Shown: piece by piece, positions 3,714 to 56,406 of the stretch
Position numbering within the stretch: position 1 is the stretch's first letter
Layout of the letters: every line of letters begins with the position of its first letter
Source of the DNA: a virus
Strand: one strand, 5' to 3'
Length of the DNA stretch: 64,000 bases
IMG/VR virus record: IMGVR_UViG_3300027659_000020
Location: 25,557 to 89,556 of that record
The notes under the pieces: model-generated
Told to the model about the DNA's origin: nothing
Database searches by the model: none
What the model saw: the letters and a program-made list of their open reading frames with translations, nothing else
Position numbers and translations under genes: made by a program

Positions 3714-4703
3714 CTACGCAGATGGTAAAGTTGTAGGCGGAGGTGCCAATGGTGGCGCTTCCGCCTTTTTCTTGGCAAAATGCGGGCGGCCTTTTGGATC
3801 AAGCAACACCATCGCAAGTACTCCCAATCCCATTACTGTGGCAACAACCCAGAATGGGATAGTAGCAGCTACATAAGACAGTCCGAGCATTGAAATACCA
3901 GAAATAATGAATGTTGGTGACTTCATTAAGAAGCCCACGAGCAAGAGCAAAACTCCTACTGCAAGTAACGACTTGACGATCCATCCGACCATCTCTAGAC
4001 GTTGCTTTTCCTTTGCGATCTCAACAGCATCCCGAGCTTCCTTGAGCATACGCTCGCGCACGACAGCCTGTTCTTCCTGAAGTTTATTGAGCGCGATAGC
4101 CTGATCGTTGCGCAGCTTTGATTTCTCAGCTTCTTTCTTTTTGACTGAAGCATCAGCTTCCTCATAGCGTTTAGCTGCAGCCTGAGCTTCCTTGGCGCGT
4201 GTCTCGTAAATCTTAGCGATTTCAGCTGCTTCCTTTTTTGCGGCAGCATCGATGTCAGCAGCAATTGCTTTCTTTCTATCCTCCGGCACGGGCATGAGCA
4301 TTTCTGCATTTTCCTTAGACTTCAGATTTGCAATCAGCACGCGTTTGTCGAGCCCAACGACTTCCTCAGTTGCAACCATAATACCATAGTTGATCTCAGA
4401 GATCTTGTCAAAGTTCTCGTTATCCACCTTCTCACGATTTGCATATGCTGCAGCAAGTTCTTGGCGAAACTTTTCATACTGTGCCTCAAGCGCTTTGCGT
4501 GCATCTGACTCACGACGAGCAATTTCTGTCATCCTATCAACAGCGCCAGCAGTAGCTGTAGCACCTGCTACTGTGCCCGAGGTATCCCCGCCTTTATTGT
4601 TCAATCTGTCGCCCAGACTACCTATCTTGCTACCCAGGCCCATCATCATTTGACATCCTGTAAGCAGCGCCAGCATAGGTAATACTATAAGCAATCGCTT
4701 CAT
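3714..4703 (-). CDS. lipoprotein with long coiled coil and C-terminal transmembrane helices (candidate unimolecular spanin-like)
   Basis: Lipobox LLTG-C17, roughly 180 aa Ala/Glu/Lys helical region, 2-3 hydrophobic helices, TATAAATA immediately upstream. Confidence 0.75.
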   Translation of the reverse strand: MKRLLIVLPMLALLTGCQMMMGLGSKIGSLGDRLNNKGGDTSGTVAGATATAGAVDRMTEIARRESDARKALEAQYEKFRQELAAAYANREKVDNENFDKISEINYGIMVATEEVVGLDKRVLIANLKSKENAEMLMPVPEDRKKAIAADIDAAAKKEAAEIAKIYETRAKEAQAAAKRYEEADASVKKKEAEKSKLRNDQAIALNKLQEEQAVVRERMLKEARDAVEIAKEKQRLEMVGWIVKSLLAVGVLLLLVGFLMKSPTFIISGISMLGLSYVAATIPFWVVATVMGLGVLAMVLLDPKGRPHFAKKKAEAPPLAPPPTTLPSA

Positions 4704-4710
4704 TTGTTCC

Positions 4711-4718
4711 TATTTATA
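4711..4718 (-). promoter_or_regulatory. T4 late promoter TATAAATA
   Basis: Exact consensus on the minus strand, 7 nt before ATG 4703. Confidence 0.75.
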
Positions 4719-4745
4719 CTTAGTTAGGTGCCAAGTCATGATTGC

Positions 4746-4753
4746 TATAAATA
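4746..4753 (+). promoter_or_regulatory. T4 late promoter TATAAATA
   Basis: Exact consensus, 8 nt before ATG 4762. Confidence 0.75.
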
Positions 4754-4761
4754 GCAATACT

Positions 4762-5016
4762 ATGGTATCACCAATTCTAAAAGTACTAGGCCAAGAAGTT
4801 GCTGTCGGCACTGGCGGTAATAATTTCAACGGAAGCACTCTCATCAGAGTATACAATAACACTGCTTCGGATGTTTCGGTTCTTGTAAAAGATGCTGAAG
4901 CAGTTACTACTGGTAGTTTTACCCTTCGTTCATACGAAACGGTATTTGTCAGAAAACTACCAGCAGAAAGCATGTTTAGTACCGCTACCATCCGCATGGT
5001 TCCTATTGCTTTCTAA
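4762..5016 (+). CDS. small beta-rich late protein
   Basis: Start MVSPILK placed after the late promoter. Confidence 0.7.
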   Translation: MVSPILKVLGQEVAVGTGGNNFNGSTLIRVYNNTASDVSVLVKDAEAVTTGSFTLRSYETVFVRKLPAESMFSTATIRMVPIAF

Positions 5017-5019
5017 TAT

Positions 5020-5610
5020 ATGTCCGCTGATAAGAATTACGAATCCCATGTTGCAGCAATTGGCACAGTAGTCGAGGGCCGAGCAATTCCTCAGATTGGG
5101 GTTAGCCCGCTCGATTACTCAGACATTCTGAAGTTTTCAAACTGCACCAATATCCTGGTCAATAGATGCACCATTCAGGGCGGCAAGGAAGACTGCATCG
5201 ATGCAGTGCGCGGATCAAACTATACTATTATGAATACCAAGCTGATTCCAAGTCAAAATGGAATCACGCTTAAAGGATCTATTGATGGGGCGCTAATCGA
5301 AAACGTAGAGTTCGATGGGCACGGAGCGGATTGCGACATTGACATCGGCCAGTTTGATAATTACTGGTGGACTGGCCGAGCGCCCACGCGCAATGTGGTA
5401 ATCCGAAATGTCTACTGTGCAAATGGTTCTCCGATAAAGGTTCGCCTATGGGATGCTGCTAATCCAGTAATCGAAAAATCGAATGTCCAGATTATTCGTG
5501 TTCCAAAGATTATCTGGTGGCCATACTTTGTATTCCGCGCTGCTCAGACTCGTGGAATTAGGAATGTCGCTAAGCCAGTCAATCCAACTATGTTTATCAC
5601 TACCAAGTAA
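5020..5610 (+). CDS. right-handed parallel beta-helix (pectin-lyase-like fold) protein
   Basis: Repeated N-x-(V/I)-x-(N/R)-x-(T/V)-I strands and EDCIDAVRGSNYTI. Confidence 0.65.
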   Translation: MSADKNYESHVAAIGTVVEGRAIPQIGVSPLDYSDILKFSNCTNILVNRCTIQGGKEDCIDAVRGSNYTIMNTKLIPSQNGITLKGSIDGALIENVEFDGHGADCDIDIGQFDNYWWTGRAPTRNVVIRNVYCANGSPIKVRLWDAANPVIEKSNVQIIRVPKIIWWPYFVFRAAQTRGIRNVAKPVNPTMFITTK

Positions 5611-5768
5611 TGCAATCGCCTGAGGAAAAGAAGAATTGGAAGTATGCTCTTGATTCGATTGGTAATCGAATCTGGTGTAATACAGATATGTACCTCGCAA
5701 TGACGTGTGGCGGTATATGCGGATTTTGGCTTGGAATGATTGTCTGGATACTCGTCAAGCATAGATAA
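5610..5768 (+). CDS. small single-pass membrane protein (52 aa)
   Basis: TAATG overlap; MQSPEEKKNW...LAMTCGGICGFWLGMIVWILVKHR. Fills the gap between neighbours exactly. Confidence 0.55.
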   Translation: MQSPEEKKNWKYALDSIGNRIWCNTDMYLAMTCGGICGFWLGMIVWILVKHR

Positions 5769-5770
5769 AA

Positions 5771-6031
5771 ATGGCTGCTGCACCGAAAGACTTATTTGAC
5801 TTCGGATTCACTGCAGTAGCAGAGCAAGATCTTGATGCCACGAAGCAAGTTGATGTGGCATACAAGCAAGCTGCAAAACACGAGGACAAGCTCGCCAAAC
5901 TATATGATGCGATCCTTCCTTTGCTGCAGAATTTAAAGAAGAATCCTGAGAAGGAATACATTAAATGGCCTAACCGAGTGAAGAAGGTCGAAGAATTTGA
6001 GAAGATGATTTCGGAGATTGTCAATGGATGA
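5771..6031 (+). CDS. conserved T4-like hypothetical protein
   Basis: FDFGFTAV...LPLLQNLKKNPEKEYIKWPNR motif. Confidence 0.8.
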   Translation: MAAAPKDLFDFGFTAVAEQDLDATKQVDVAYKQAAKHEDKLAKLYDAILPLLQNLKKNPEKEYIKWPNRVKKVEEFEKMISEIVNG

Positions 6032-6312
6032 ATCTAGATACATTCAAATCAATCATGGATCTGGGCTTCTCAGTTGCAGCCGTGACTGTTGGCGGCGTTT
6101 TCATTGTTATCCTACTTAAGTATATTTTGGCAGGAGTTGTTTCTGATGTAAAGTCTATCAGCGGTCTAGCAGGAATGCTGAATAACCGCGTGCGCACAAT
6201 GAACAACGATCTGGTCCGGATCGATGCTCTAATTTCTTCTCGATTTGGGTTGCGCGTCGATCTTGAGCGGCTATCGCGCACTGATGGCAAGACCGATGCT
6301 CGAAAGGACTGA
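6028..6312 (+). CDS. membrane-anchored coiled-coil protein A
   Basis: N-terminal TM (LGFSVAAVTVGGVFIVILLKYIL) followed by NRVRTMNNDLVRID. Confidence 0.8.
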   Translation: MNLDTFKSIMDLGFSVAAVTVGGVFIVILLKYILAGVVSDVKSISGLAGMLNNRVRTMNNDLVRIDALISSRFGLRVDLERLSRTDGKTDARKD

Positions 6313-6317
6313 CCGTG

Positions 6318-6656
6318 ATGGAGGAGATCAATACATTCAAGACGATGGTCAACCAGTATGGCCTACCGATTATGGCAGCTGGTGGAATGGGCTACTTTAT
6401 TTACTTTGTCTGGAAATTTGTAACTGAGAATATCAATGTAGAGCTCTCGAACGCGAAGAAAATAATGATTGAGCTAATCGATAGAATTAGAATGCTAGAT
6501 AACGATTTAATACGTCTCGAGCAGAAGATCAATACTGCTATCGAGGTTAAACGTGTAGAGAATCCGCTTAAAGCTAACCCCGAACGGCCTGCTGGAACAA
6601 CTTCGCCATTTAATCTACCTCCTACCGATGGACAATCACAGCCGAAACAGCTATAA
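6318..6656 (+). CDS. membrane-anchored coiled-coil protein B (paralog of A)
   Basis: TM YGLPIMAAGGMGYFIYFVWKFV followed by DRIRMLDNDLIRLE. Confidence 0.8.
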   Translation: MEEINTFKTMVNQYGLPIMAAGGMGYFIYFVWKFVTENINVELSNAKKIMIELIDRIRMLDNDLIRLEQKINTAIEVKRVENPLKANPERPAGTTSPFNLPPTDGQSQPKQL

Positions 6657-7137
6657 GGCCGCCGATACTGGATTCCTATTACTAGTAGGAATTTTGCTAT
6701 TCCTGTGTGTATTGCAGTCGTGTGGCCGGGCCTCGGATATGGTACATTCATTTAAGTCGCCGGCATTTAGCGGAATTGGCTACTCCTCGCATATATTTAC
6801 TCAGGAGAATTTAGCACGCACTCGCAAGCAAACAATCAAAGATGTTGCTAAAGCAGAGGCAGAAAATCTAAAGCTTGCAAGCCAGAATACTCCTCTGAAT
6901 AGCTTCATTGTGAATCTGCAGGCGCGTATTTACTCGCAGCTTGCATCTCAGGTAACAGATCAGATCTTCAATGCATCTGGTGCAACTTTTGGTGTCATTA
7001 ACTTGCAAGGTGGATCAACAGTAACATGGAATCGAGCGGGTGACTTTGTCACTCTATACATTACTGATCCTTCCACCGGCAACATTACTTCAATTCAGGT
7101 GCCGGTAGGATCTCTATCGCCGCCTCCATCTAGCTGA
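6628..7137 (+). CDS. csgF: curli assembly protein CsgF-like
   Basis: Signal peptide, then SDMVHSFKSPAFSG (CsgF N-terminal motif), FIVNLQARIYSQLA and ITDPSTGNITSIQVPV; adjacent to csgG. Confidence 0.8.
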   Translation: MDNHSRNSYKAADTGFLLLVGILLFLCVLQSCGRASDMVHSFKSPAFSGIGYSSHIFTQENLARTRKQTIKDVAKAEAENLKLASQNTPLNSFIVNLQARIYSQLASQVTDQIFNASGATFGVINLQGGSTVTWNRAGDFVTLYITDPSTGNITSIQVPVGSLSPPPSS

Positions 7138-7946
7138 TGAAAGTAATTGCCATGAGCCTACTCGCGCTGTCTTTAGTTGGCTGCGCTTCAATACCTCGCT
7201 CGCCGAGTATTCTTGAGATGCCACGCAGCCAAGTATCTCCGCTTGAGAAGCAATTGATCGGGGTTCCACCAATTGATGGTAACCGGATCACTGTTGCTAT
7301 CTACGGTTTCGCAGATAAGACAGGTCAGCGCAAGACTCAGGATGCTTATGCTTCATTCTCATCAGCGGTCACACAAGGAGCAGATTCTTGGCTAATTGAC
7401 TCACTGCGCACTGCTGGATCAGGTAGGTGGTTTCAGGTGCTAGAGCGAACATCCTTGGACAATCTAATTAAGGAACGGCAGCTTATTGCACAGACGCGCG
7501 AGTCGTTTCTGGGCAGAGATGCTGAAAAACTTTCTCCGATGCTATTCGCCGGTATCATTGCTGAGGGCGGGATTATCGGATACGATACTAACATTTTGAC
7601 TGGAGGTGCCGGAGCTAGTCTCTTAGGTATATCCGGAAATACACAATACCGAAAAGATGTCGTGACAGTCTCCTTGAGATTTGTCTCGGTTCAGACTGGA
7701 GAAGTACTGCTTTCTGTAGCAGTTACAAAAACAATCACAAGTGTGAGCGTCTCTGGAAATCTTTTCAAGTTCTATGAACACGGTACAACGCCCGCAGAAT
7801 CTGAATTGGGCCTGACAGCTAATGAGCCGAATACTATCGCGGTTCGTAGCGCAATTGATCAGGCTGTTATAGAGATCATACATCAAGGGGCGAAGACTGG
7901 ATTATGGAAATTCGTCACGACACTACCACTAACCACAAATCCTTAA
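7137..7946 (+). CDS. csgG: curli secretion channel CsgG-like lipoprotein
   Basis: Lipobox LVGC; VAIYGFADKTGQRK, FSSAVTQGA, WFQVLERTSLDNLIKERQLI, EGGIIGYD, LRFVSVQTGEVL. Confidence 0.93.
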   Translation: MKVIAMSLLALSLVGCASIPRSPSILEMPRSQVSPLEKQLIGVPPIDGNRITVAIYGFADKTGQRKTQDAYASFSSAVTQGADSWLIDSLRTAGSGRWFQVLERTSLDNLIKERQLIAQTRESFLGRDAEKLSPMLFAGIIAEGGIIGYDTNILTGGAGASLLGISGNTQYRKDVVTVSLRFVSVQTGEVLLSVAVTKTITSVSVSGNLFKFYEHGTTPAESELGLTANEPNTIAVRSAIDQAVIEIIHQGAKTGLWKFVTTLPLTTNP

Positions 7947-7958
7947 GATAATTGCACT

Positions 7959-8771
7959 ATGAAAACTCTCATTAAGCTAATAATCGGATTTGCACTGATC
8001 GGATTGTTCCTCACCGCAGCATATGCGCAGAACCAGATCTATGTAAATCAAGTTACTACAGGCGGAAATACCACCTTAGTCCAAGTCGGAAGCCTCAATA
8101 AAGTCGGGACCTCACAAACTCCGAGTGACATCACCGGAGATAATATCGTGTTTGAAATGCGTCAGATTGGCGACAGCAATGACACCAAGTTTTCCATTGC
8201 TAGCGCAAACAACCTGAAGCTGCTTACTGTTGCTACCGGCAATAGCAATGCCCAGCAGTATTACTTCTCTGGTGCTAGCAATAATGTAAATATACTACTG
8301 AATGGAAACTCAAATAAGTTCTTACTCAACGGAGACACTACCGTGGATCACACATCGAGCACAGATACAGCTAAGGCTACCTTTACCAATTCGGACCTGT
8401 TGTTCGACGTTCAAGGTAACTCGAATGACATCCGTCTTGGAATTAGTTCAGGTAAATACAACTATCTGGACTACAAAGTCACTGGTAACTCCAATACTAT
8501 CAAATCAACTCAAATCGGAAACACGGCGGGTTCTGCTGCAAAGGCTGGCCATGAACAGACCGTTGTGCTTACCGGATCTTCCAATGACTTGACAATCTAT
8601 CAGGGCGGACTCGAAAAGCAACTGTTCAACTACACACTGGCCGGATCAACCAATACGGTGCGCATTGTGCAGACCACGACCGGTTATGCTCCGGTGATGA
8701 CTACATCCGGAACAAATGGCCCAGCAGGTCCTGCCACTACCACCAATTCAATCGTTCCTCCTTCACTTTAA
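7959..8771 (+). CDS. curlin-like (CsgA/CsgB-type) secreted beta-solenoid protein
   Basis: Signal peptide ending AYA; repeated Q-x-G-x-x-N and G-x-S-N turns at roughly 22-24 aa spacing; N/G/S/T/Q-rich; follows csgG. Confidence 0.65.
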   Translation: MKTLIKLIIGFALIGLFLTAAYAQNQIYVNQVTTGGNTTLVQVGSLNKVGTSQTPSDITGDNIVFEMRQIGDSNDTKFSIASANNLKLLTVATGNSNAQQYYFSGASNNVNILLNGNSNKFLLNGDTTVDHTSSTDTAKATFTNSDLLFDVQGNSNDIRLGISSGKYNYLDYKVTGNSNTIKSTQIGNTAGSAAKAGHEQTVVLTGSSNDLTIYQGGLEKQLFNYTLAGSTNTVRIVQTTTGYAPVMTTSGTNGPAGPATTTNSIVPPSL

Positions 8772-8774
8772 TCC

Positions 8775-9938
8775 GTGAATATTAAAGCCGCTATTGCTAT
8801 TAGCTTAGCGGCTTTTTCGTCTGCGTATGGGTCGATTGGAAAGATGCTAGAGGTAACTGGGCCTACTCAGATTGTTCGTGGGAAAGATAAGATTGAGGGC
8901 AAAGTCAATGTAGAAGTTGAGATGAACGATTCAGTGGAAACGCTTAAGTCTCGTGTCTCGATTACATTCGAGGATAATACCCGGATGCAGGTTACAGAAT
9001 TCTCAAAGCTAAAAATTGATGAATTTGTATATGACTCAAAGACTGGTAAAGGTAGTCTGGGTATAAAAGCTGCATTTGGCACTGTGCGGTATGCTTCTGG
9101 AGCAATCGCCAAGAACAGCCGTGAAAACGTCAAGGTGCAGACACCTACCGCAAAAGTATCGGTGCGTGGCACTGACTTTTCAATGACAGTATCTGAAGAT
9201 GGCAAGAGTCTGATTGTACTTCTACCATCAATTCCTAACGCCGCTGGCGAAAAAGCAATAGTAGGAGAGATTGAGGTCTCGAATATGAGCGGCACTGTGC
9301 TAATGACTAAAGCATATCAGGCAACATTCGTATCCTCGGCAAATACCGCTCCCACTCCTCCCATCATTCTAGACTTTCAGGATGAGTCTAAGATCAACAA
9401 TATGCTAATGGTCGAGACACCTAAGCAAGTCACGCAGGCAGTGAAAGAACAGAAGAAAGACAAACAATCACAATCCACAAGCGACAATGAAGATAATAAG
9501 CCAAAAAAATCTGCTGCGAAAGCAGATGCTAAGGTTGCAGTTTCTCAGATTGATACGCCAGCAAATAATGAACCAGTGGCTAAAGCAGAAGATATACCTG
9601 CCGTCGAGACTAAGTTAGATCTAAGCTCTATACAGCCACAGGTGATGCAAGCGGTTGCTGAGGCAATTTCAAAGACTATTGCTCCAGCAGCTCCAGCAGT
9701 TTCAGTTATAGCAGTGGAGCCACCTACTAATATGATAGTGTCTGCAACAGTAAATACTGGCTGGTCAACTGATGGAGTTAACGCCACGCTGTATATCGAT
9801 AGTAGCGGAAATATCATTCGGTATAGCACTAAAGCAAATATCAGCGCTACAGTTGAAGTCACTAACGGTGAGGGAGCCAAGACATATCCTCTCAACTTCG
9901 GTGATAAATTAAATGTGAAGATCATACAAAAGAAATAA
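8775..9938 (+). CDS. exported FecR-domain protein
   Basis: GTG start and signal peptide; ITFEDNTRMQVTEFSKLKID, GTVRYASG, VQTPTAKVSVRGTDF; low-complexity linker and C-terminal beta domain. Confidence 0.85.
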   Translation: MNIKAAIAISLAAFSSAYGSIGKMLEVTGPTQIVRGKDKIEGKVNVEVEMNDSVETLKSRVSITFEDNTRMQVTEFSKLKIDEFVYDSKTGKGSLGIKAAFGTVRYASGAIAKNSRENVKVQTPTAKVSVRGTDFSMTVSEDGKSLIVLLPSIPNAAGEKAIVGEIEVSNMSGTVLMTKAYQATFVSSANTAPTPPIILDFQDESKINNMLMVETPKQVTQAVKEQKKDKQSQSTSDNEDNKPKKSAAKADAKVAVSQIDTPANNEPVAKAEDIPAVETKLDLSSIQPQVMQAVAEAISKTIAPAAPAVSVIAVEPPTNMIVSATVNTGWSTDGVNATLYIDSSGNIIRYSTKANISATVEVTNGEGAKTYPLNFGDKLNVKIIQKK

Positions 9939-9940
9939 TT

Positions 9941-11983
9941 ATGAAGAAACATATGCTCAAGACTCTTGCTGTGGGATTTGGCGTGCTTGCAGCCGCGGCC
10001 ATTCTGCGAATCTTGGATCCATACCCAATTGAAGTACTTCGTCTAAAAGGTCTAGATTACTACCAACGAGCGCAAGAAAAGAAGCTATCCGAGAATATCG
10101 CGGTTATTGAGATCGACGAGAATGCTCTAGAAGCAAATGGGCAATGGCCCTGGAAACGCGATGTACTTGCTGCCGGTATACAACGCGCCGCAGACGCAGG
10201 AGCAACAGCAGTAGTTCTGCCCGTCATCTTTGCAGAGCCTGACCGGCTTGGCGGAGATGTTCAGTTCGTAGAGCAGCTTAATAAAACAGCAGTAATCATT
10301 TCTCAGTCTGCATCCCAAAAGGGCAAAGGATATCCAGTGCCTCGGGGCCTAGCTACTATCGGTGGAGCAGCAGAGGATTGGCTGTTCGACTATCCTGCTG
10401 CAATTGGGCCGATTGATGAAATTGGCAAAGCCGCAGCAGGTGTCGGTATGCTGCTAACAGCACCTGAACTTGATGGCGTGGTACGTCGCCTTCCGCTAAT
10501 CATACAAGTCAAAGGTGAGAAGTATCCTACTTTACCACTCGAGGTGCTGCGCGTCTTTGGCGGTGAGGCGAGTAATCAGGCAAAAGTCACAGAAGCTGGT
10601 ATTGCGGCAGTGCGCGTGGCAGGTATTGCGCCAATTAAGACTGATGCTAATGCCAGAGTCTGGCTTAACTTTAAGTATACCTTTTCTTCAGTATCTTACA
10701 CTGATAAAGACTGGAGCAGTCTAAAGGGTCGTATTGCTATTATTGCACCGACGGCAGAAGGTCTGGCAAATACTGTAGCATCACCTCTGGGTACTACATA
10801 CGGTTATGAGGTCAATCTTCATGCATTGCAGATGCTGATTGATGAGGCGCGTTTGGAACGGCCAGCGGAATTTGATCTTTATGAGCTTGCTGCAGGTGTG
10901 CTGATTTGCGCAATAGCAGTAGTGACTATCTGCTATCTGAGTTATAAACTTGCCGGGCTGATCTTTGTGCTACTTGCTGCAATTCCCATCGGTATAGGAT
11001 TCTACCTATTTCACCTCGGATTGCTAGCCGACTATACATGGCTGATAATCGCGTTGACAGCAAGCTGGGGATCTGCGCTGTTCATGCGATTCGTGATGGA
11101 ATTTAAGTTAAAGCAGCAGATTAAAAAGCAGTTTGAGACATACCTATCGCCAGATCAGGTTGCGCAGTTACAGAAGAATCCAGATGCACTCAAACTCGGA
11201 GGTGAGGAACGCGAGCTTTCCATCATGTTCACCGATGTCCGTGGGTTTACCGCAATCTCTGAGCACTACGGAAAGAACGTCCAGGGACTGACTCAGATCA
11301 TGAATCGCTACATGACAGCAATGACTAGGTCAATCATTGAGAAGAAAGGTACTCTCGACAAGTACATCGGCGATGCTCAGATGGCATTCTGGAATGCTCC
11401 TCTCGATGACAATTCTCATGCCATTCATGCGGTTGAAACTGGTCTGGAGATGATGAGAAGTCTGAAGGCTTTTAATGCAGAGATCACTCAGGAAGGTGTC
11501 CCGGCTTTTGGTATGGGTCTGGGTATCAACACCGGAACTGTGGTGGTAGGCAATATGGGATCTGAGCAGCGATTTGACTACACCTGCCTGGGCGATCATG
11601 TCAATCTTGCATCACGCCTAGAAGGACAGTCAAAACCGTACGGTGTGAAGATCGTTCTGGGACCACTTACTCGTGAGCGCGTGAAGGATGTCTATCCTAC
11701 GCTAGAGCTTGATTGCATCGCAGTAAAAGGTAAGAAAGAAGGCGTGCGAATCTACACCGTCTTTGACAAAGGCACTCATATCTATCCGGTGAGCCATGAT
11801 AGCTTTCTGGATCTATATCGTACTCGCGAATGGAATGAAGCAATCAGGCTGGCAAAGCACCTTGCTGCTAGTATGGACTTCATGGCTGGATACTACGAGA
11901 TGATGGTCGAGCGGATTGAGTATCTGCGCGATAATGATCCCGGAACAAGTTGGGATACTATTTTTAGAGCCACCTCGAAATAA
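9941..11983 (+). CDS. CHASE2-domain class III adenylate cyclase
   Basis: N-terminal TM, CHASE2 (GQWPWKR, IFAEPDR, ELDGVVRRLPL), three TMs, cyclase domain (MFTDVRGFT, DKYIGDAQM, DYTCLGDHVNLASRLEG). Confidence 0.93.
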   Translation: MKKHMLKTLAVGFGVLAAAAILRILDPYPIEVLRLKGLDYYQRAQEKKLSENIAVIEIDENALEANGQWPWKRDVLAAGIQRAADAGATAVVLPVIFAEPDRLGGDVQFVEQLNKTAVIISQSASQKGKGYPVPRGLATIGGAAEDWLFDYPAAIGPIDEIGKAAAGVGMLLTAPELDGVVRRLPLIIQVKGEKYPTLPLEVLRVFGGEASNQAKVTEAGIAAVRVAGIAPIKTDANARVWLNFKYTFSSVSYTDKDWSSLKGRIAIIAPTAEGLANTVASPLGTTYGYEVNLHALQMLIDEARLERPAEFDLYELAAGVLICAIAVVTICYLSYKLAGLIFVLLAAIPIGIGFYLFHLGLLADYTWLIIALTASWGSALFMRFVMEFKLKQQIKKQFETYLSPDQVAQLQKNPDALKLGGEERELSIMFTDVRGFTAISEHYGKNVQGLTQIMNRYMTAMTRSIIEKKGTLDKYIGDAQMAFWNAPLDDNSHAIHAVETGLEMMRSLKAFNAEITQEGVPAFGMGLGINTGTVVVGNMGSEQRFDYTCLGDHVNLASRLEGQSKPYGVKIVLGPLTRERVKDVYPTLELDCIAVKGKKEGVRIYTVFDKGTHIYPVSHDSFLDLYRTREWNEAIRLAKHLAASMDFMAGYYEMMVERIEYLRDNDPGTSWDTIFRATSK

Positions 11984-12182
11984 GTATTGTGACATAAGCA
12001 GAACGGCTTACTGGTTTAAGCGCGTATTTCATTAGAAAACAATGTCAGTTTTTGCTAAAAGCACAGTATTTTAAGTCGTTGCTAGTGTGCAACTTAGGAA
12101 AATAGCAGCACAAATGCTTATTTTGTTATTTACATTGGTTGGTAGCCGCAATTGAATATGCGAGTCAGGTGGACAACGCAAA

Positions 12183-12471
12183 ACCAACTTAAACAAAAAA
12201 CAAAATGAAAATACATCTATCTACTACTCATAGCGACGGCAGCATTATTTCGTATTCAGCCAAGGTTGTTAGAGCTTCGGGGGAATACGCCCAACCCAAC
12301 CTAACATGGGTTGAGATTCCAGCTAGAGTTAGAGCTCTCCGTTTCCCACCTTACGGCGGGCGACGGTATGTCGCTTTCAAAACATCGACGATCGCGACGC
12401 GACGCGACGCGGCGCTCGCCTGATAGCGCAAATAACCCAACGACCAACTTAAACAAAAAACAAAATGAAAA
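12183..12471 (+). repeat. 29-bp exact direct repeat (12183-12211 and 12443-12471) spanning leader and start codon
   Basis: ACCAACTTAAACAAAAAACAAAATGAAAA occurs twice, 260 bp apart. Confidence 0.95.
12205..12423 (+). CDS. hypothetical early protein
   Basis: Starts within repeat copy 1. Confidence 0.6.
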   Translation: MKIHLSTTHSDGSIISYSAKVVRASGEYAQPNLTWVEIPARVRALRFPPYGGRRYVAFKTSTIATRRDAALA

Positions 12472-12734
12472 CCCTAACTCCAGCCTCCCTCAACTTGCTG
12501 CTCAATCTCATCGCCGACTCCGGCAATTGGTCAAACATGCCAATGCTTGACCTCTCGCCCAGCGAGAAGGGGAATTACACTGACCTAAAGAAACACGGCC
12601 TAGTTAAATCTCACCGTGACGAGGGAATTGACTGGTGTAACTTCAAGTTTACTACCGGGACCATCGTCACTGATGGAACGCGCACCTTTATCCTTGAGGA
12701 TCACGGTGATTTTTCAGAGTCAAGGGTTGCGTGA
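12465..12734 (+). CDS. hypothetical early protein
   Basis: Starts within repeat copy 2. Confidence 0.7.
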   Translation: MKTLTPASLNLLLNLIADSGNWSNMPMLDLSPSEKGNYTDLKKHGLVKSHRDEGIDWCNFKFTTGTIVTDGTRTFILEDHGDFSESRVA

Positions 12735-12759
12735 ATCATCATTCTCTATCTCAATCAAC

Positions 12760-12954
12760 ATGAAAGCTAATCAACTCACTTCCATCAAAATGAATAATAC
12801 CCAAGTGCTCGCTCCTGCAAATGACGGTAAAATCGGCGAGCCGCTCGGCGTTTGGCTTCGCCGACTGAATGATAAGGTTATGAGTACCCCGTCCGACCTT
12901 GAGGAGATGCTGGCAGTTAAATCTTCAGGCGCGACAGGAATTCTTTGGAAATAA
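12760..12954 (+). CDS. hypothetical protein
   Basis: MKANQLTSIK... 64-aa ORF; start uncertain. Confidence 0.45.
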   Translation: MKANQLTSIKMNNTQVLAPANDGKIGEPLGVWLRRLNDKVMSTPSDLEEMLAVKSSGATGILWK

Positions 12955-12965
12955 TAAAACGCAAC

Positions 12966-13436
12966 ATGAAAACACGCACGCGCATGATCCTCAACCGTAC
13001 CAAGACTTTACTGCTCCTTGGATCAATGCTCGCCGTGGGTTCCTTTGCTCGCGCTCAGGATACTGACAGAATGATCGTTGCTCTGGCGAAAGTCGAGTCA
13101 AATGGCAATGCTGCCGCGGTTGGAGATAACGGTAAGGCCTTCGGTATCCTCCAGATTCATCTCTCGATGGTACTCGACGCTAACCGCATCGCTAGCACAC
13201 ACTTCACACACCGTGAGATGCTTGATCCAGTAAAAGCTCGTTCTGTAGCGAAGATTGTGCTAACCTATTACTCTAAACACATTAGTAAAACCACTGGCCG
13301 CAATGCAACCAACAAGGAGCTCGCGTTCATCTGGAACGGCGGTGCGGGCGCATGGAAGCGAGCTAGCGTCCCTATCGATGATGCGAAACAGCGCAACCTC
13401 GAGGTATACTGGAACAAGGTCGCTAAAGCCCTCTAA
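12966..13436 (+). CDS. lysozyme-superfamily / lytic transglycosylase-like enzyme with signal peptide
   Basis: Hydrophobic segment ending ARA; ALAKVESNG (catalytic Glu), GDNGKAFGILQI, FIWNGG. Start uncertain. Confidence 0.75.
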   Translation: MKTRTRMILNRTKTLLLLGSMLAVGSFARAQDTDRMIVALAKVESNGNAAAVGDNGKAFGILQIHLSMVLDANRIASTHFTHREMLDPVKARSVAKIVLTYYSKHISKTTGRNATNKELAFIWNGGAGAWKRASVPIDDAKQRNLEVYWNKVAKAL

Positions 13437-48441: not shown

Positions 48442-51400
48442 ATGGCACTAAATTTCCCACAATCACCCTTCGTAGGGCAACAAGTTACTTCAGGTACCAG
48501 AACATGGACATGGAGTGGTAGTCACTGGGCCAATAACACCGTCACCGGTGTTCAAGGCAGCCAGGGTATCCAAGGCACACAAGGCCAACAGGGTATCCAA
48601 GGCCAACAAGGTATCCAAGGTACCCAAGGCGCTCAAGGTACTCAAGGTGCACAAGGACACCAAGGTATTCAAGGCCAACAGGGTATTCAGGGTACTCAGG
48701 GCACACAAGGTACGCAAGGTGCACAAGGACACCAAGGTATTCAAGGTATCCAAGGCCAACAAGGTATCCAAGGCATCCAAGGAACTCAGGGTACTCAAGG
48801 TACTCAAGGCGAACAGGGTATCCAAGGTACTCAAGGTGAGCAAGGTATCCAGGGTATTCAAGGAACTCAAGGCCGCCAGGGTATTCAAGGAACTCAAGGC
48901 ACTCAAGGCACGCAAGGTCAACAGGGTATCCAAGGAACCCAAGGTGCACAGGGACACCAAGGGATCCAAGGCACACAGGGTACTCAGGGAACTCAAGGTG
49001 AGCAGGGTATTCAAGGAACTCAAGGTACTCAAGGCCAACAAGGAATCCAAGGTACTCAAGGCACGCAAGGAACTCAAGGCCAACAAGGCATTCAAGGAAC
49101 TCAAGGCGCTCAAGGCCATCAAGGAATCCAAGGTACACAAGGAACTCAGGGCACGCAAGGCGAGCAAGGAATCCAGGGTATCCAAGGGCAACAAGGAATC
49201 CAAGGTACTCAAGGTACTCAAGGCCAGCAAGGAATTCAAGGCACACAAGGCACACAGGGTGAACAAGGAATCCAAGGTACACAAGGTACTCAGGGCCAAC
49301 AAGGAACCCAAGGCACACAAGGAACCCAAGGCACACAAGGAACCCAAGGCACACAAGGCCAACAAGGTATTCAAGGAACTCAGGGTACTCAAGGCCAGCA
49401 AGGTATCCAAGGAACTCAAGGCACTCAAGGCCAGCAAGGTATCCAAGGCCAACAGGGAATCCAAGGCACTCAAGGAACTCAAGGTGAACAGGGAATCCAA
49501 GGCACGCAAGGAACTCAAGGCCAGCAAGGTATCCAAGGCACTCAGGGAACTCAGGGTACACAAGGCACGCAAGGAACTCAAGGAACTCAAGGCGAACAAG
49601 GTATCCAGGGTATTCAAGGAACTCAAGGTACTCAAGGCACACAAGGAACCCAAGGTACACAAGGAACCCAAGGTACGCAAGGCCAACAAGGTATCCAAGG
49701 TACAACCGGAATGGCCTTTACCGTTGCCAAGACTTATGTCTCTGTCGCTGCACTTATTGCTGATACATCTCCCACTGCAATTGTTGCCGGCCAATTTGCG
49801 CTAATTAACACTAACGATGTTGAAGATCCAGATAATTCTAAACTTTATCTGTGGAACGGCTCATCATATATTTTCGTTAATGACCTTTCTGGAACTGCTG
49901 GTATTCAAGGAATAACCGGCGCTCAAGGTGCACAGGGCACACAGGGAACTCAGGGTACACAAGGAACTCAAGGTACACAAGGTACACAGGGCCAGCAAGG
50001 TATCCAAGGTATCCAAGGTACTCAAGGCACTCAAGGCCAACAAGGTATCCAAGGCACACAAGGTACACAAGGTGAACAAGGAATCCAAGGTACACAAGGT
50101 ACTCAAGGCCAACAAGGTATCCAAGGTACGCAAGGAACTCAAGGCACTCAAGGAACACAAGGTACACAGGGAACACAGGGAACACAAGGTACACAAGGCC
50201 AACAAGGTATTCAAGGCACACAGGGAACCCAAGGCGAACAGGGTATCCAAGGTATTCAAGGCACTCAGGGAACTCAAGGCACACAGGGCCAACAGGGTAT
50301 TCAAGGTACACAAGGTACACAAGGCCAACAAGGTATCCAAGGAATCCAAGGCACACAAGGAACCCAAGGTGAGCAAGGTATCCAAGGCACGCAAGGTACA
50401 CAGGGTCAACAAGGAATCCAAGGTATCCAAGGAACTCAAGGCACTCAAGGCCAACAGGGTATCCAAGGAACTCAAGGCACTCAAGGAACTCAAGGTGAGC
50501 AAGGTATCCAAGGAATCCAGGGGCGCCAAGGTACTCAAGGTACTCAAGGAACGCAAGGTACTCAAGGAACACAGGGCGAGCAAGGTATCCAAGGCATCCA
50601 AGGCCAACAAGGAATCCAAGGTACGCAAGGAACACAGGGCACGCAAGGCACGCAAGGCGAGCAGGGTATTCAAGGTATCCAAGGGCAACAGGGCATCCAA
50701 GGTACTCAAGGAACGCAAGGCACACAGGGAACTCAGGGTGAGCAAGGTATCCAAGGCACCCAAGGTACTCAAGGCACCCAAGGTACTCAAGGTACTCAAG
50801 GTACTCAAGGTACTCAAGGTGAGCAAGGTATCCAAGGCACACAAGGTCGTCAAGGTATCCAAGGGACTCAAGGAACTCAAGGCACCCAAGGTGCTCAAGG
50901 CCAACAGGGAATCCAAGGTACACAAGGCACGCAAGGAACTCAAGGTGAGCAAGGTATCCAAGGAACTCAAGGTACTCAAGGACGCCAAGGCATTCAGGGA
51001 ACGCAAGGCACACAAGGCACACAAGGTGAGCAAGGAATCCAAGGAACTCAAGGTGCACAGGGACATCAAGGTATCCAAGGTACTCAGGGAACTCAGGGAA
51101 CTCAGGGAACTCAAGGTACGCAAGGTACACAAGGAACCCAAGGTACACAAGGAACCCAAGGTACACAAGGAACTCAAGGCCAACAGGGTATTCAAGGAAC
51201 CCAAGGTACTCAAGGAACTCAAGGCCAACAAGGTATCCAAGGAACTCAAGGCACTCAAGGTGAACAGGGTATCCAAGGAACTCAAGGCACACAAGGCACG
51301 CAAGGTACACAGGGTCAACAAGGAATCCAAGGTATCCAAGGCACTCAAGGCACTCAAGGCCAACAAGGAATCCAAGGAACTCAAGGTACGCAAGGAACGC

Positions 51401-54400
51401 AGGGCGAACAAGGCATTCAGGGTATCCAAGGCACGCAAGGCACTCAAGGCCAACAAGGTATCCAAGGCACTCAAGGAACTCAGGGAACTCAAGGTGCCCA
51501 AGGCACGCAAGGCACTCAAGGCCAACAAGGTATCCAAGGTATCCAAGGAATCCAAGGAATCCAAGGTGTGCAAGGCGCCACCGGGCTTGCCTTCACCATT
51601 GCTAAAACTTACGTTTCCGTTGCTGCACTGACAGCAGACACTTCACCAACTGCAATTGTTGCTGGCCAATTTGCGCTAATCAATACGAATGACGTTGAAG
51701 ATGCAGATAATTCTAAGTTGTATCTGTGGAATGGCTCATCGTATATTTTTGTCGATGACTTGTCTGGTTCTGCTGGTATTCAAGGAATCACTGGTGCTCA
51801 AGGCACTCAAGGAACTCAAGGCCAACAAGGCATCCAAGGCCAACAAGGTATCCAAGGAACTCAAGGCACTCAAGGCCAACAAGGTATCCAAGGAACTCAA
51901 GGCACTCAAGGCCAACAAGGTATCCAAGGAACTCAAGGCACTCAAGGCCAACAAGGAATCCAAGGAACTCAAGGCACTCAAGGCACTCAAGGCGAACAGG
52001 GTATCCAAGGAACTCAAGGCACTCAAGGTACTCAAGGTACTCAAGGTACTCAAGGCCAACAAGGTATTCAGGGAATCCAAGGAATCCAAGGTACTCAAGG
52101 TACACAAGGTGAACAGGGTATCCAAGGCACTCAAGGAACTCAAGGCCAACAAGGTATCCAAGGCACACAAGGAACTCAAGGCACACAAGGCCAACAAGGT
52201 ATCCAAGGTACGCAAGGCACACAAGGCACCCAAGGAACTCAAGGCCAACAAGGTATCCAAGGCACGCAAGGCACACAAGGCACACAAGGTGAACAAGGTA
52301 TTCAAGGTATCCAAGGCCAACAAGGAATCCAAGGTACTCAGGGAACTCAAGGTACTCAAGGCACACAAGGTGAACAAGGAATCCAAGGTATCCAAGGCCA
52401 ACAGGGAATCCAAGGGCGCCAAGGAACTCAGGGCACTCAGGGCACTCAAGGTGAACAAGGAACTCAAGGCATCCAAGGTACTCAAGGCACACAAGGTACT
52501 CAAGGTACTCAAGGACGCCAAGGTATTCAAGGCACACAGGGAACCCAAGGTGAGCAAGGTATCCAAGGAACTCAAGGAACTCAAGGCCGCCAAGGAATCC
52601 AAGGTAATCAAGGAACACAGGGCGAACAAGGTATCCAAGGAATCCAAGGCGCTCAAGGTATTCAGGGTATCACTGCTGCAAATGCAAATGTTCTAGTAAG
52701 TGATGAAGCTCCTGCTTATCCTGTCCCAGGTGATCTATGGTGGGATACCGTCGAAGGTATGCTTCGCATTTACTATTCTGACGGTGATTCCGCACAGTGG
52801 ATCGACACTGTTCCTGGTTCTGTCCAAGGTATCCAAGGTATTACTGGTATTCAAGGAACACAAGGAACACAAGGAACTCAAGGACGCCAAGGAATCCAAG
52901 GTGCAACTGGTCTAGCATTTACTATTGCCAAGACTTACGTTTCTGTTGCTGCACTGACAGCAGATACTTCACCAACTGTAATTGTTTCTGGTCAATTTGC
53001 ATTGATCGATACTGCAAATGTGGAGGATCCAGATAATTCTAAGCTGTACCTATGGAACGGTTCATCGTATGTTTTTGTTAGCGACTTGTCTGGTTCTGCT
53101 GGTATTCAAGGTATTACTGGATCACAGGGTATCCAAGGCACACAAGGCACACAAGGCACACAAGGCACACAAGGCACACAAGGCACTCAGGGTACTCAAG
53201 GACGCCAGGGAATCCAAGGTATTCAAGGTGAGCAAGGAACTCAAGGTACTCAAGGTACTCAAGGACGCCAAGGAATCCAAGGAACTCAAGGTACACAAGG
53301 CGAGCAAGGCATCCAAGGTAATCAAGGAACTCAAGGCCAACAAGGTACTCAAGGACGCCAAGGAACTCAAGGTGAGCAAGGTGTTCAAGGTGAACAAGGA
53401 ACCCAGGGTATCCAAGGAACTCAAGGTACACAAGGACGCCAAGGAACTCAAGGCACACAAGGTCAACAAGGCATTACCGGATCGCAAGGCGCGCAAGGTA
53501 CTCAAGGTACGCAAGGTACTCAAGGCACGCAGGGTGAACAAGGTATCCAAGGTACTCAAGGAACTCAAGGCCGCCAGGGAATCACTGGATCTCAAGGAAC
53601 TCAAGGAACTCAAGGTCAACAAGGCATTACCGGATCGCAAGGAACTCAAGGTACGCAAGGCCAACAAGGAATCCAAGGTATTACTGGTGCTCAAGGAACT
53701 CAAGGAACTCAAGGCACCCAAGGAACTCAAGGCACTCAAGGCCAACAAGGAATCCAAGGTATTACTGGTGCTCAAGGCACTCAAGGTACTCAAGGCACTC
53801 AAGGTACTCAAGGTACGCAAGGCCAACAGGGTATCCAAGGCACTCAGGGAACTCAAGGCACTCAAGGCCAACAAGGAATCCAGGGTATTACTGGTAGCCA
53901 AGGCACACTCGGTACTCAAGGTACGCAGGGAACTCAAGGTACTCAAGGCCAACAAGGAATCCAGGGTATTCAAGGAACTCAAGGACGCCAAGGAATCCAA
54001 GGTATAACGGGTCTGGCATTTACAATTGGTAAAACATATGCATCTGTTGCTGCACTAACAGCAGATACTTCACCAACTGTAATTGTTGCCGGCCAATTTG
54101 CGCTGATTGATACTGGAAATGTTCAAGATGCAGATAATTCTAAGCTGTACCTATGGAATGGTTCAACCTATACCTTCATCAATGACCTTTCTGGAACCGC
54201 TGGAATCCAAGGTAATACTGGTGCCACAGGAAATACGGGAAATACTGGATCCCAAGGTACTCAAGGTACTCAAGGTCAACAAGGTATAACTGGTAATACT
54301 GGAAATACGGGTAATACTGGATCCCAAGGTACACAAGGAACCCAAGGCCAACAAGGTATTACTGGTAACCAAGGTACACAAGGAACCCAAGGACAACAAG

Positions 54401-56406
54401 GTATTACTGGTAACCAAGGTAACCAAGGTACACAGGGCCAACAAGGTATTACTGGATCTCAAGGCGCGCAAGGTCAACAAGGTATTACTGGTAATACTGG
54501 TGCACAAGGTACACAAGGCCAACAAGGAACACAGGGAACACAGGGCCAACTCGGTACTCAAGGTACTCAAGGTACTCAAGGTCAACAAGGTATTACTGGA
54601 TCCCAAGGTACTCAAGGTACTCAAGGTCAACAAGGTATTACTGGATCTCAAGGCACACTAGGTACTCAAGGAACACAGGGACGCCAGGGTACTCAAGGCG
54701 AGCAAGGTATCCAAGGAATCCAAGGGCGCCAAGGTATCCAAGGTAATACCGGTACTACCGGTAATACTGGTAATACTGGATCTCAAGGCACTCAAGGTCA
54801 ACAAGGTATCACTGGAAATACGGGTAATACCGGAACTACCGGTACTACAGGTAATACTGGATCTCAAGGCACTCAAGGTCAACAAGGTATCCAAGGTAAT
54901 ACAGGAAATACTGGAACTACAGGAACTACAGGAAATACTGGATCTCAAGGTACTCAAGGCACTCAAGGCCAATACGGTATTACAGGTAATACAGGATCTC
55001 AAGGTACACAAGGTCAACAAGGAATCCAAGGAATCCAAGGGCGCCAAGGTATCCAAGGTAATACTGGTACTACAGGTAATACTGGAAATACTGGATCTCA
55101 AGGTACTCAAGGCACTCAAGGCCAATACGGTATTACAGGTAATACTGGATCTCAAGGCACTCAAGGTCAACAAGGTATCACTGGCAATACTGGAAATACT
55201 GGAACTACTGGTAATACTGGATCTCAAGGTACTCAGGGTACAATTGGTACTACTGGAACTACTGGAACTACAGGTAATACAGGATCTCAAGGTACACAAG
55301 GTCAACAAGGAATCCAAGGAATCCAAGGGCGCCAAGGTATCCAAGGTAATACTGGTACTACAGGTAATACTGGATCTCAAGGCACAATTGGTACTACAGG
55401 TAATACTGGATCCCAAGGCACAATTGGTACTACAGGTAATACTGGATCTCAAGGCACTCAAGGTCAACAAGGTATCACTGGTAATACTGGTAATACTGGT
55501 AATACTGGAAATACTGGTAATACTGGATCTCAAGGCACTCAGGGTACAATTGGTACTACTGGAACTACAGGTAATACAGGATCTCAAGGTACACAAGGTC
55601 AACAAGGAATCCAAGGAATCCAAGGGCGCCAAGGTATCACAGGTAATACTGGAAATACTGGAACTACTGGTAATACTGGATCTCAAGGCACTCAGGGTAC
55701 AATTGGTACTACAGGTAATACTGGAAATACTGGAACTACTGGTAATACTGGATCTCAAGGTACTCAAGGCACACTTGGTACTACAGGTAATACAGGAACT
55801 ACTGGTAATACTGGATCTCAAGGTACTCAAGGCACACTTGGTACTACAGGTAATACAGGAACTACTGGTGCTGCTGGACCTTCGACATCAGTAAATTCCG
55901 CTGCTAATACTACATCCACCGTACTGTATCCTGTGATGGTTACTACTACTGGAAGTAATGCAACTCCATATTCGACCACGACCGCTGGATACTTCTCGTT
56001 CAATGCAACTAACGGTGGATTGCAAGTAGCCTCGCTAGGTATCGGTACCGCTCCTTCTGGTACCGCTGGCGAAATTCGCGCAACCAACAACATCACTGCT
56101 TATTACTCTGATGAGCGCCTCAAGACACGTATCGGAAAAATCGATGATCCTATTGCCAAGGTTCAGTCGCTATCCGGATTCTACTTCGTTCCAAATGACA
56201 CCGCGATTGCTCTAGGATATGAAAAGAAGATTGATGTCGGTGTCTCTGCTCAGGAAGTTGAGGCAATACTGCCAGAAATTATCGCTCCAGCGCCAATTGA
56301 CTCGAAGTATATGACTGTTCGCTACGAAAAGCTTGTGCCTCTGCTGATTGAAGCAATCAAGGTACTTGCCGATCGCGTCAATGAGCTAGAAAATCGTGCT
56401 AAGTAA
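48442..56406 (+). CDS. giant collagen-like fibre (2654 aa) with S74 chaperone
   Basis: Uninterrupted ORF of G-X-Q then G-(N/T)-T triplets, five inserted domains, YYSDERLK C-terminal chaperone; AATAAATA at 48424. Confidence 0.85.

Follow-up and report, generated by a model that had tools for sequence, protein, structure and literature searches.

Curli-type secretion genes of phages have been treated in three papers. Zaragoza-Solas et al. 2020 (PMC7029224) and Buchholz et al. 2022 (PMC9004378) describe CsgF and CsgG only, with no cyclase, FecR or CHASE2. A fuller gene set was given by Wittmers et al. 2022 in mSystems (PMC9599517), namely 'HK', CsgF, CsgG, CsgA/B, FecR, an optional second CsgA/B and an adenylate cyclase, found in podo- and myo-pelagiphages. 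This viral type VIII secretion system (T8SS) module was present at all 65 GOV2.0 stations and was seen in metatranscriptomes; an alphaproteobacterial origin was proposed for it, and FecR and the cyclase were reported not to be part of bacterial T8SS operons. In the same paper FecR is read as an iron regulator, and the cyclase is often missing from the podophage versions. CHASE2 is mentioned in none of the three papers, nor is the bacterial FecR-CHASE2 pairing drawn on. Here, a 64,000-nucleotide stretch of viral DNA (positions 25,557 to 89,556 of IMG/VR record IMGVR_UViG_3300027659_000020; hereafter the window, meaning the whole stretch) was analysed with a focus on a block of seven genes at 6028-11983, which is predicted to encode two small transmembrane (TM) proteins, CsgF, CsgG, a curlin-like protein, an exported FecR-domain protein and a CHASE2 adenylate cyclase. 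Judged by homology to the published viral modules, the block is a known module. A preliminary description of this DNA had regarded only the csgF/csgG pair as previously noted in phages; this does not hold, as the 2022 paper (PMC9599517) already contains the module complete with FecR and the cyclase. What is new here is a freshwater member, counts of co-inheritance and a sharper reading of the FecR/cyclase half.

In bacteria, FecR-domain proteins and CHASE2 sensors are found side by side in several settings. In the BiofilmReg operon of Burkholderia, a LysM-FecR protein adjoins a CHASE2 histidine kinase (PMC5192318), and in the cyclase-phosphodiesterase-FecR-TPR cluster of Campylobacterota an extracytoplasmic FecR-domain protein lies beside a CHASE2 transmembrane sensor (PMC9239204, PMC5192318). 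In Sinorhizobium, the rise in cyclic AMP (cAMP) that the CHASE2 cyclases CyaK and CyaD1/D2 produce in answer to an external protein requires the outer-membrane protein NsrA, which contains a FecR domain according to PMC9239204; the CRP-like regulator Clr is the cAMP receiver (PMC13001267, PMC7529298). The reading put forward here, at a probability of roughly 0.55, is that the block in the window is a freshwater copy of the published module, chimeric in make-up, in which the FecR protein partners the CHASE2 cyclase to turn a periplasmic state into cAMP.

The window belongs to a T4-like myophage, as it encodes gp26-, gp5- and gp6-like baseplate proteins, gp32, gp59 and a tape measure. Its source record is 89.6 kb long and estimated to be 54% complete, and all record-wide negatives given below refer to that portion. 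The window copy has a GC content of ~45%. Because near-identical DNA occurs in freshwater and lake-water metagenomes from many studies, the window represents a freshwater lineage, the module itself having been described in the ocean; freshwater fonsimyophages were reported to be without the curli module (PMC7029224). The block consists of the following open reading frames (ORFs):

6028-6312, + strand: TM_A, 94 aa, bitopic membrane protein
6315-6656, + strand: TM_B, 113 aa, paralogue of TM_A
6628-7137, + strand: CsgF-like protein, 169 aa (Pfam PF10614, 9.4e-17)
7137-7946, + strand: CsgG, 269 aa (Pfam PF03783, 2.4e-50)
7959-8771, + strand: curlin-like repeat protein, 270 aa, with conserved repeats and a Sec signal peptide
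8775-9938, + strand: exported FecR-domain protein, 387 aa (Pfam PF04773, 1.6e-10)
9941-11983, + strand: CHASE2 adenylate cyclase, 680 aa (CHASE2 2.2e-40, Guanylate_cyc 3.2e-20)

The seven ORFs follow one another at spacings of +2, -29, -1, +12, +3 and +2 nt, i.e., csgF precedes csgG with a 1-nt overlap and the FecR gene precedes the cyclase gene with a 2-nt gap. The Pfam matches for CsgF, CsgG, FecR, CHASE2 and the class III cyclase all exceed the curated cut-offs. The seven identities and positions given in the preliminary description are thus borne out by ORFs, Pfam, PHROG and repeat alignment. The tight coupling it claimed stands for the seven genes, except that the overlaps are not all of 12 nt or less (TM_B and CsgF overlap by 29 nt) and that the coupling reaches upstream to 4738.

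CsgF, CsgG and the curlin-like protein make up a curli-type secretion unit. The CsgF-like protein has an N-terminal signal or anchor segment and also matches phrog_35372; no direct match to the CsgF chains in the PDB was obtained with phmmer, and its identity is carried by the Pfam profile. CsgG matches E. coli CsgG at 1.7e-43 across residues 9-259, has a lipobox L-V-G-C at residues 13-16, and retains the Phe of the constriction loop while the Asn is changed to Ser; it is identified as the outer-membrane lipoprotein channel. The curlin-like protein contains ~8-10 Q-x-G-x-x-N repeats with a period of ~23 aa. Stacking of the repeat units gives the consensus DNNTLTITQTGNSNTVDISQTGAN, which is the curlin-type Q-x-G-x-x-N repeat, and the Q, G and N columns are invariant in an alignment of 26 homologues. 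The protein has no Pfam match, including Curlin_rpt even at E<=10, and is 26-29% identical (tblastn) to the curlin repeat or curlin-associated proteins of Methylophilales phage Melnitz and Pelagibacter phage HTVC008M. It is presumed to be the CsgG substrate. CsgE was found neither in the record nor among the cassette ORFs, and searches made alongside for equivalents of CsgC/CsgH and CsgD found none.

The last gene of the block encodes a receptor-type cyclase. Its layout comprises TM1 (residues 4-27), CHASE2 (~28-308; the Pfam match spans 19-328), a catalytic domain (425-605) and a conserved C-terminal extension (606-680). The hydrophobic segments are 4-27, 309-363 and 368-386, and the stretch 309-386 is read as three TM helices. 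Because CHASE2 sits between TM1 and this TM bundle, it is predicted to be periplasmic and the catalytic domain cytoplasmic. The roles of the catalytic residues of class III cyclases are well established, and alignment to the structures of CyaB (3r5g) and Cya2 showed that all six positions are present: the metal-binding Asp pair (FTD, IGD), the ATP-specifying pair (Lys in LDKYIGD and Asp in FDYTCLG) and the transition-state Asn/Arg (VNLASRLE). From these intact metal, Lys/Asp and Asn/Arg residues, the protein is expected to be an active, ATP-specific cyclase, and it should be homodimeric.

The preliminary description had noted that no cAMP receptor is encoded, and this can be extended: a search with PF00027 found no cyclic nucleotide monophosphate (cNMP)-binding protein in the record or in the complete genomes of Melnitz and HTVC008M, other folds being possible. 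Because the record and these two complete relatives encode no such protein, a host factor would be the default cAMP target. A 218-aa cNMP-binding protein (1.2e-16) with a hydrophobic C-terminal half was observed at 1396-2052 of locus L092; this locus lies in the same record as locus L020, a complete 297-kb phage that carries five genes of the block, and the protein is encoded ~14 kb from the cassette. It is a candidate for a phage-encoded cAMP receptor.

The FecR protein has a signal peptide and lacks both a TM helix and an anti-sigma domain. An AlphaFold model built on 31 homologues divides it into an N-domain (~residues 21-208, pLDDT >90), a disordered and highly variable linker (209-324), and a small all-beta C-domain (324-384). 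The N-domain matches the cell-surface-signalling domain of PupR (6ovk_R; Z 15.3, root-mean-square deviation (rmsd) 2.5 A over 134 residues) and the Bacteroides anti-sigma factor 4m0n (Z 14.3), and is thus modelled as a periplasmic FecR fold. A further match, to the 76-aa 'cell surface anchoring domain' 5ix9 (Z 10.9, rmsd 2.3 A over 73 residues), covers residues 18-113 of the model, which make up the first half of the FecR fold. We take 5ix9 to be the retention module of a giant RTX adhesin, which plugs the outer-membrane pore of the adhesin. This match was considered as an assignment for the C-domain and was rejected, as it maps to the N-terminal FecR fold. No extracytoplasmic function (ECF) sigma region 4_2 (Sigma70_r4_2) or TonB-dependent transducer was found in the record. 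Since the record lacks both an STN domain and an ECF sigma region 4_2, the block does not appear to be an iron system of the FecIRA type.

The surroundings of the bacterial homologues separate the two halves. On plasmids and chromids, the best matches to the cyclase come from Alphaproteobacteria, and a FecR-domain gene adjoins the CHASE2 cyclase in all four loci examined (Ensifer PDNC004, Paracoccus aminophilus pAMI5, Shinella H4-D48 and Ruegeria THAF33). In three of them it immediately precedes the cyclase gene in the same orientation, and genes for TPR, cNMP-binding and MBL-hydrolase proteins frequently occur near these pairs. The partnership of FecR and CHASE2 cyclase suggested in the preliminary description is thus a real bacterial signalling pairing (4/4 loci; PMC5192318, PMC9239204), and the proposed route from the outer membrane to cAMP has its precedent in Sinorhizobium (PMC13001267, PMC7529298). 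No FecR or cyclase gene was found near the alphaproteobacterial curli loci (csgH, csgF, csgG) that were examined. As bacterial curli loci are without FecR and cyclase, and the FecR-CHASE2 pair stands separately in bacteria, the phage block would be a chimera of a curli secretion unit and a FecR/CHASE2-cyclase sensor pair of alphaproteobacterial type.

Among viruses, the halves are kept together. A blastn search of the region against GenBank phages gave no match, and relatives were found at the protein level only. The only GenBank phages matching both the cyclase and CsgG are HTVC008M and Melnitz (41-47% identity), whose FecR proteins and cyclases are 45-49% and 41-42% identical to those of the window, respectively. 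Their annotated gene order is two small hypotheticals, CsgF, CsgG, curlin-associated, FecR-domain/hypothetical, second curlin-like/hypothetical and adenylate cyclase. An IMG/VR scan with the CsgG of the window returned 350 viral contigs, the best 80 of which were used for loci, and the presence of each gene was scored by tblastn with the seven cassette proteins. Sequence of 6.5 kb or more after the start of csgG was available for 48 viral loci; of these, all 48 have the FecR gene, 47 the cyclase and 45 the curlin-like gene. The gene order is identical in all loci. The locus without a cyclase (L067, IMGVR_UViG_3300002091_000847) carries CsgF, CsgG, curlin and FecR genes, no detectable cyclase, and after FecR an ORF of 170 aa that is weakly curlin-like.

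The claim that the seven genes travel together holds for the FecR and cyclase genes and for the order in HTVC008M and Melnitz, but not for the TM pair: TM_A or TM_B was found in 17 of the 69 loci with enough upstream flank, and is absent from most freshwater loci. In a large freshwater clade (L004-L060, GC ~0.37-0.39), one member of which is the complete 297-kb phage, the block begins at csgF, with unrelated genes upstream and without TM_A/TM_B. The upstream neighbours differ between its sub-clades: L017 and L020 have an RNA-ligase-like ORF of 341 aa there, and in L036 and L051 this place is taken by unrelated ORFs. The conserved core is thus composed of five genes, from csgF to the cyclase, and lies in at least three genomic backgrounds, including the 297-kb phage; it has moved among several phage backgrounds and has been inserted at different sites. 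A scan of genome contigs gave only three, binned in 'Bacteroidetes' metagenome-assembled genomes. One of these (L085, RGCF01000015.1) carries at 4766-11986 the whole cassette with both TM proteins and an extra ORF of 484 aa between FecR and cyclase; the neighbours of the cassette are a UDP-galactopyranose mutase gene, a DruA-like gene and five genes for radical-SAM proteins. L085 is probably a mis-binned phage contig and not evidence of host or origin.

TM_A and TM_B lie outside the conserved core. TM_A has one TM segment (~residues 8-44) followed by a helical tail. Both proteins match phrog_18771 (1.2e-24 for TM_A and 6e-31 for TM_B) and share the motif R-I-x-x-(M/L)-(N/D)-N-D-L-I-R; they are paralogues, and are 43-56% identical to the small proteins of Melnitz and HTVC008M. 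Small TM proteins of the module are called histidine kinases ('HK') in PMC9599517. This identity was rejected for TM_A and TM_B, as no HisKA or HATPase_c match was found at E<=10 and 94 and 113 aa are too short for both domains. The protein-atlas matches of TM_A are viral hypothetical clusters only, and a weak resemblance of the small TM proteins to holin-like families in the atlas (0.87) is a lead only.

Upstream of the block, the following features were found:

4711-4718, - strand: second copy of TATAAATA, facing the divergent gene 3714-4703
4746-4753, + strand: T4-type late-promoter-like motif TATAAATA, separated from the cassette by 1.28 kb and four coupled ORFs
4738-5016, + strand: first of the four coupled ORFs
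5020-5610, + strand: second coupled ORF, beta-helix (Beta_helix 1.2e-05)
5610-5768, + strand: third coupled ORF
5771-6031, + strand: fourth coupled ORF

The late-promoter motif TATAAATA that the preliminary description had placed at 4746 is thus present, at the stated remove from the cassette. The window contains 8 copies, against 3.06 expected; in 14 of 56 unique related loci a copy is found within 1.6 kb upstream of the cassette, and its position is not conserved. The four coupled ORFs are restricted to the window's own clade (L003, L005, L009, L015, L061, L062), and fall outside the conserved module. Scans of the region for sigma-70 promoters and terminators performed no better than on shuffles; a weak terminator-like hairpin was seen at 11937-11956, within the 3' end of the cyclase gene. 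Two metatranscriptome libraries from lakes contain short contigs that match stretches of the block, some of them bridging csgG/curlin and FecR/cyclase. They hint weakly at transcription of the block, DNA carry-over being possible, and stretches without such contigs carry no information.

In the flanks, the ~960 nt 3' of the cyclase gene (11984-12944) hold short ORFs only (72 aa, 89 aa and similar). These are followed at 12945-13436 (+ strand), ~1 kb downstream of the cyclase, by an ORF of 163 aa, whose product has a hydrophobic segment at its N-terminus and a motif resembling those of lytic transglycosylases (...VESNGN...GILQI...). It is conserved in the window's clade, its sole match is a tape-measure PHROG segment (1.5e-4), and it is possibly an exported endolysin. 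On the other side, the divergent gene 3714-4703 (- strand) encodes a protein of 329 aa, for which no PHROG or Pfam family was found; its N-terminus is lipoprotein-like, and it has a long coiled coil rich in Ala/Glu/Lys as well as hydrophobic C-terminal segments. Farther away, at 48442-56406 (+ strand), lies an ORF of 2654 aa with an AT skew of up to 0.46 and many overlapping shadow ORFs.

With regard to mechanism, it is envisaged that the block would be transcribed as a single unit in the infected cell, possibly late. CsgG and CsgF would insert in the host outer membrane and export the curlin-like protein, which may form a beta-solenoid. The FecR-fold protein would reside in the periplasm as a co-sensor or ligand-presenting partner of CHASE2, and the cyclase would convert the periplasmic or envelope state into cytoplasmic cAMP. 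By analogy, a signalling step from FecR to CHASE2 is plausible, because the adjacency of the two is conserved in phages and bacteria and there is an experimental precedent in Sinorhizobium. We infer that FecR controls the cyclase in the phage as well, and the input of FecR may be tied to the CsgG/curlin apparatus. A more far-reaching version, close to that of the preliminary description and considered unlikely, would make the block a trans-envelope sensor, in which CsgG/CsgF and curlin provide a surface input (e.g., fibre contact, pore blockage or envelope damage), FecR reads it in the periplasm, and the CHASE2 cyclase answers with cAMP that retunes the infected cell. FecR could then be tethered through the pore via its disordered linker and C-terminal beta domain, and cAMP would retune lysis timing, exclusion or metabolism. 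If true, this would be the first viral receptor-to-second-messenger pathway that spans both membranes. The interpretation in the preliminary description is thus supported in part: no support was obtained for its outside cue, for its role in lysis timing or exclusion, for a host CRP-type regulator as target or for contact between CsgG and FecR.

Several observations weigh against FecR-based sensing in one or the other form. The tie between FecR and the channel consists of gene linkage alone. When the FecR C-domain was modelled alone, the best hit of a fold search had a Z of 3.1, and no fold could be recognised. A curlin-like C-domain had been suspected because its last strand resembles the last curlin repeat, and was rejected, with hhalign giving 6% (P 0.006, 28 columns) and the curlin-unit HMM E 3.5-11. 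No STN domain was found in the record or in CsgG. The cyclase is dispensable for the role of the rest of the block, as it is lacking in L067 and often in podophage versions (PMC9599517). For late timing there is a single motif, 1.28 kb upstream, which is not conserved among relatives.

The explanation that comes nearest to the one preferred here puts the fibre first (Zaragoza-Solas 2020, Wittmers 2022). In this explanation, infected cells are covered with curli-like amyloid fibres that serve to aggregate cells ('sibling capture') or to keep out superinfecting phages, and FecR and the cyclase only regulate T8SS expression or secretion; it overlaps with the FecR-CHASE2 reading, the difference being the part that is regarded as the purpose of the system. 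The predicted secreted curlin-like protein would give the CsgF/CsgG pair its own substrate, marine relatives even have a second curlin gene, and the module is abundant and found in metatranscriptomes (PMC9599517). However, no clumping was seen in Melnitz infections, in cytograms or by transmission electron microscopy (PMC9004378), CsgE, CsgC/H and CsgD equivalents were not found, and the curlin-like protein of the window falls below Pfam Curlin_rpt. The late stage of a lytic cycle would moreover leave little time for transcriptional feedback via cAMP. On balance, a fibre-centred role is possible yet doubtful. It is less probable still that CsgG/CsgF are a repurposed gated pore, pinholin- or secretin-like, that times lysis with FecR and the cyclase as gate or clock, as proposed by Buchholz 2022 (PMC9004378). 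The late-promoter-like motif upstream, the lysozyme/transglycosylase-like exported ORF ~1 kb downstream (12945-13436) and the holin-like resemblance of the TM proteins (0.87, a lead only) are in line with such a pore, whereas an outer-membrane CsgG cannot depolarise the inner membrane, and Pfam and PHROG searches of the block gave no homology to holins or spanins. Secretion is preferred over a lysis pore because the constriction loop, CsgF and a dedicated substrate (in 45/48 loci) are retained.

Very improbable, finally, is that the two halves are unrelated cargo modules adjoining each other in a hypervariable island, or that FecR is an iron/ferric-citrate regulator as labelled in PMC9599517. 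The block does have its place in a variable region, with the replication genes on one side and the structural genes on the other (PMC7029224), and the bacterial versions of the two halves are unlinked; yet 47/48 loci, from several phage backgrounds, retain order and adjacency, and the gaps measure 2-3 nt. An iron regulator fits poorly with a phage FecR that has neither a cytoplasmic anti-sigma part nor a TM segment, with a record without ECF sigma region 4_2, STN or TonB-dependent transducer, and with the four alphaproteobacterial loci, in which the FecR gene is beside a CHASE2 cyclase and not beside FecI/FecA-type genes.

The reading of the FecR/cyclase half as an envelope-to-cAMP sensor matters for several reasons. 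The block of 4-6 kb is kept across myo-, podo- and jumbo-type genomes, in the sea and in lakes; since it is kept together across these phage types and habitats, it must pay its way. The hosts of these phages include some of the most abundant aquatic bacteria, and the function of the block is left open in the three papers. A CHASE2 receptor with its usual FecR partner replaces the label 'iron regulator' with a testable model, from envelope state to cAMP, for which NsrA/CyaK/Clr of Sinorhizobium is an existing experimental paradigm. If the cAMP output depends on the secretion half, the block would be an unusual two-membrane sensory pathway installed by a virus; if it is independent of that half, the block would be one more case of a known auxiliary gene cluster.

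Compared with the systems described so far, the block is closest to the pelagiphage module (HTVC008M, KC465899; Melnitz, MZ577097), with which it shares gene set and order, proteins that are 41-56% identical, and a location near ssb, tape-measure and baseplate genes of a T4-like genome. It differs from that module in lacking a second curlin gene between FecR and the cyclase, and in lying upstream of gp59/gp32, whereas the pelagiphage module is downstream of ssb. With the FecR/PupR anti-sigma regulators, the phage protein shares the periplasmic FecR fold as modelled, but it lacks their cytoplasmic anti-sigma domain, TM helix and STN-like subdomain. With the CsgBAC/CsgDEFG system of E. coli and alphaproteobacterial csgH-csgF-csgG, the block has in common a CsgG with lipobox, a CsgF Pfam match and Q-x-G-x-x-N substrate repeats; in contrast to canonical curli, it is without CsgE, CsgC/CsgH and CsgD, has the order csgF-csgG-curlin, carries Ser in place of the constriction-loop Asn of CsgG, and has a substrate below the Curlin_rpt threshold. 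Finally, the FecR-domain gene is next to the CHASE2 sensor as in pairs of the S. meliloti NsrA/CyaD1, CyaD2, CyaK/Clr type. Relative to these bacterial pairs, the phage FecR is small (387 aa) and soluble, without a beta-barrel, LysM or TPR partner, and no phosphodiesterase or cNMP-binding protein is part of the block; unlike the bacterial loci examined, which are without one, the phage pair is joined to a curli unit.

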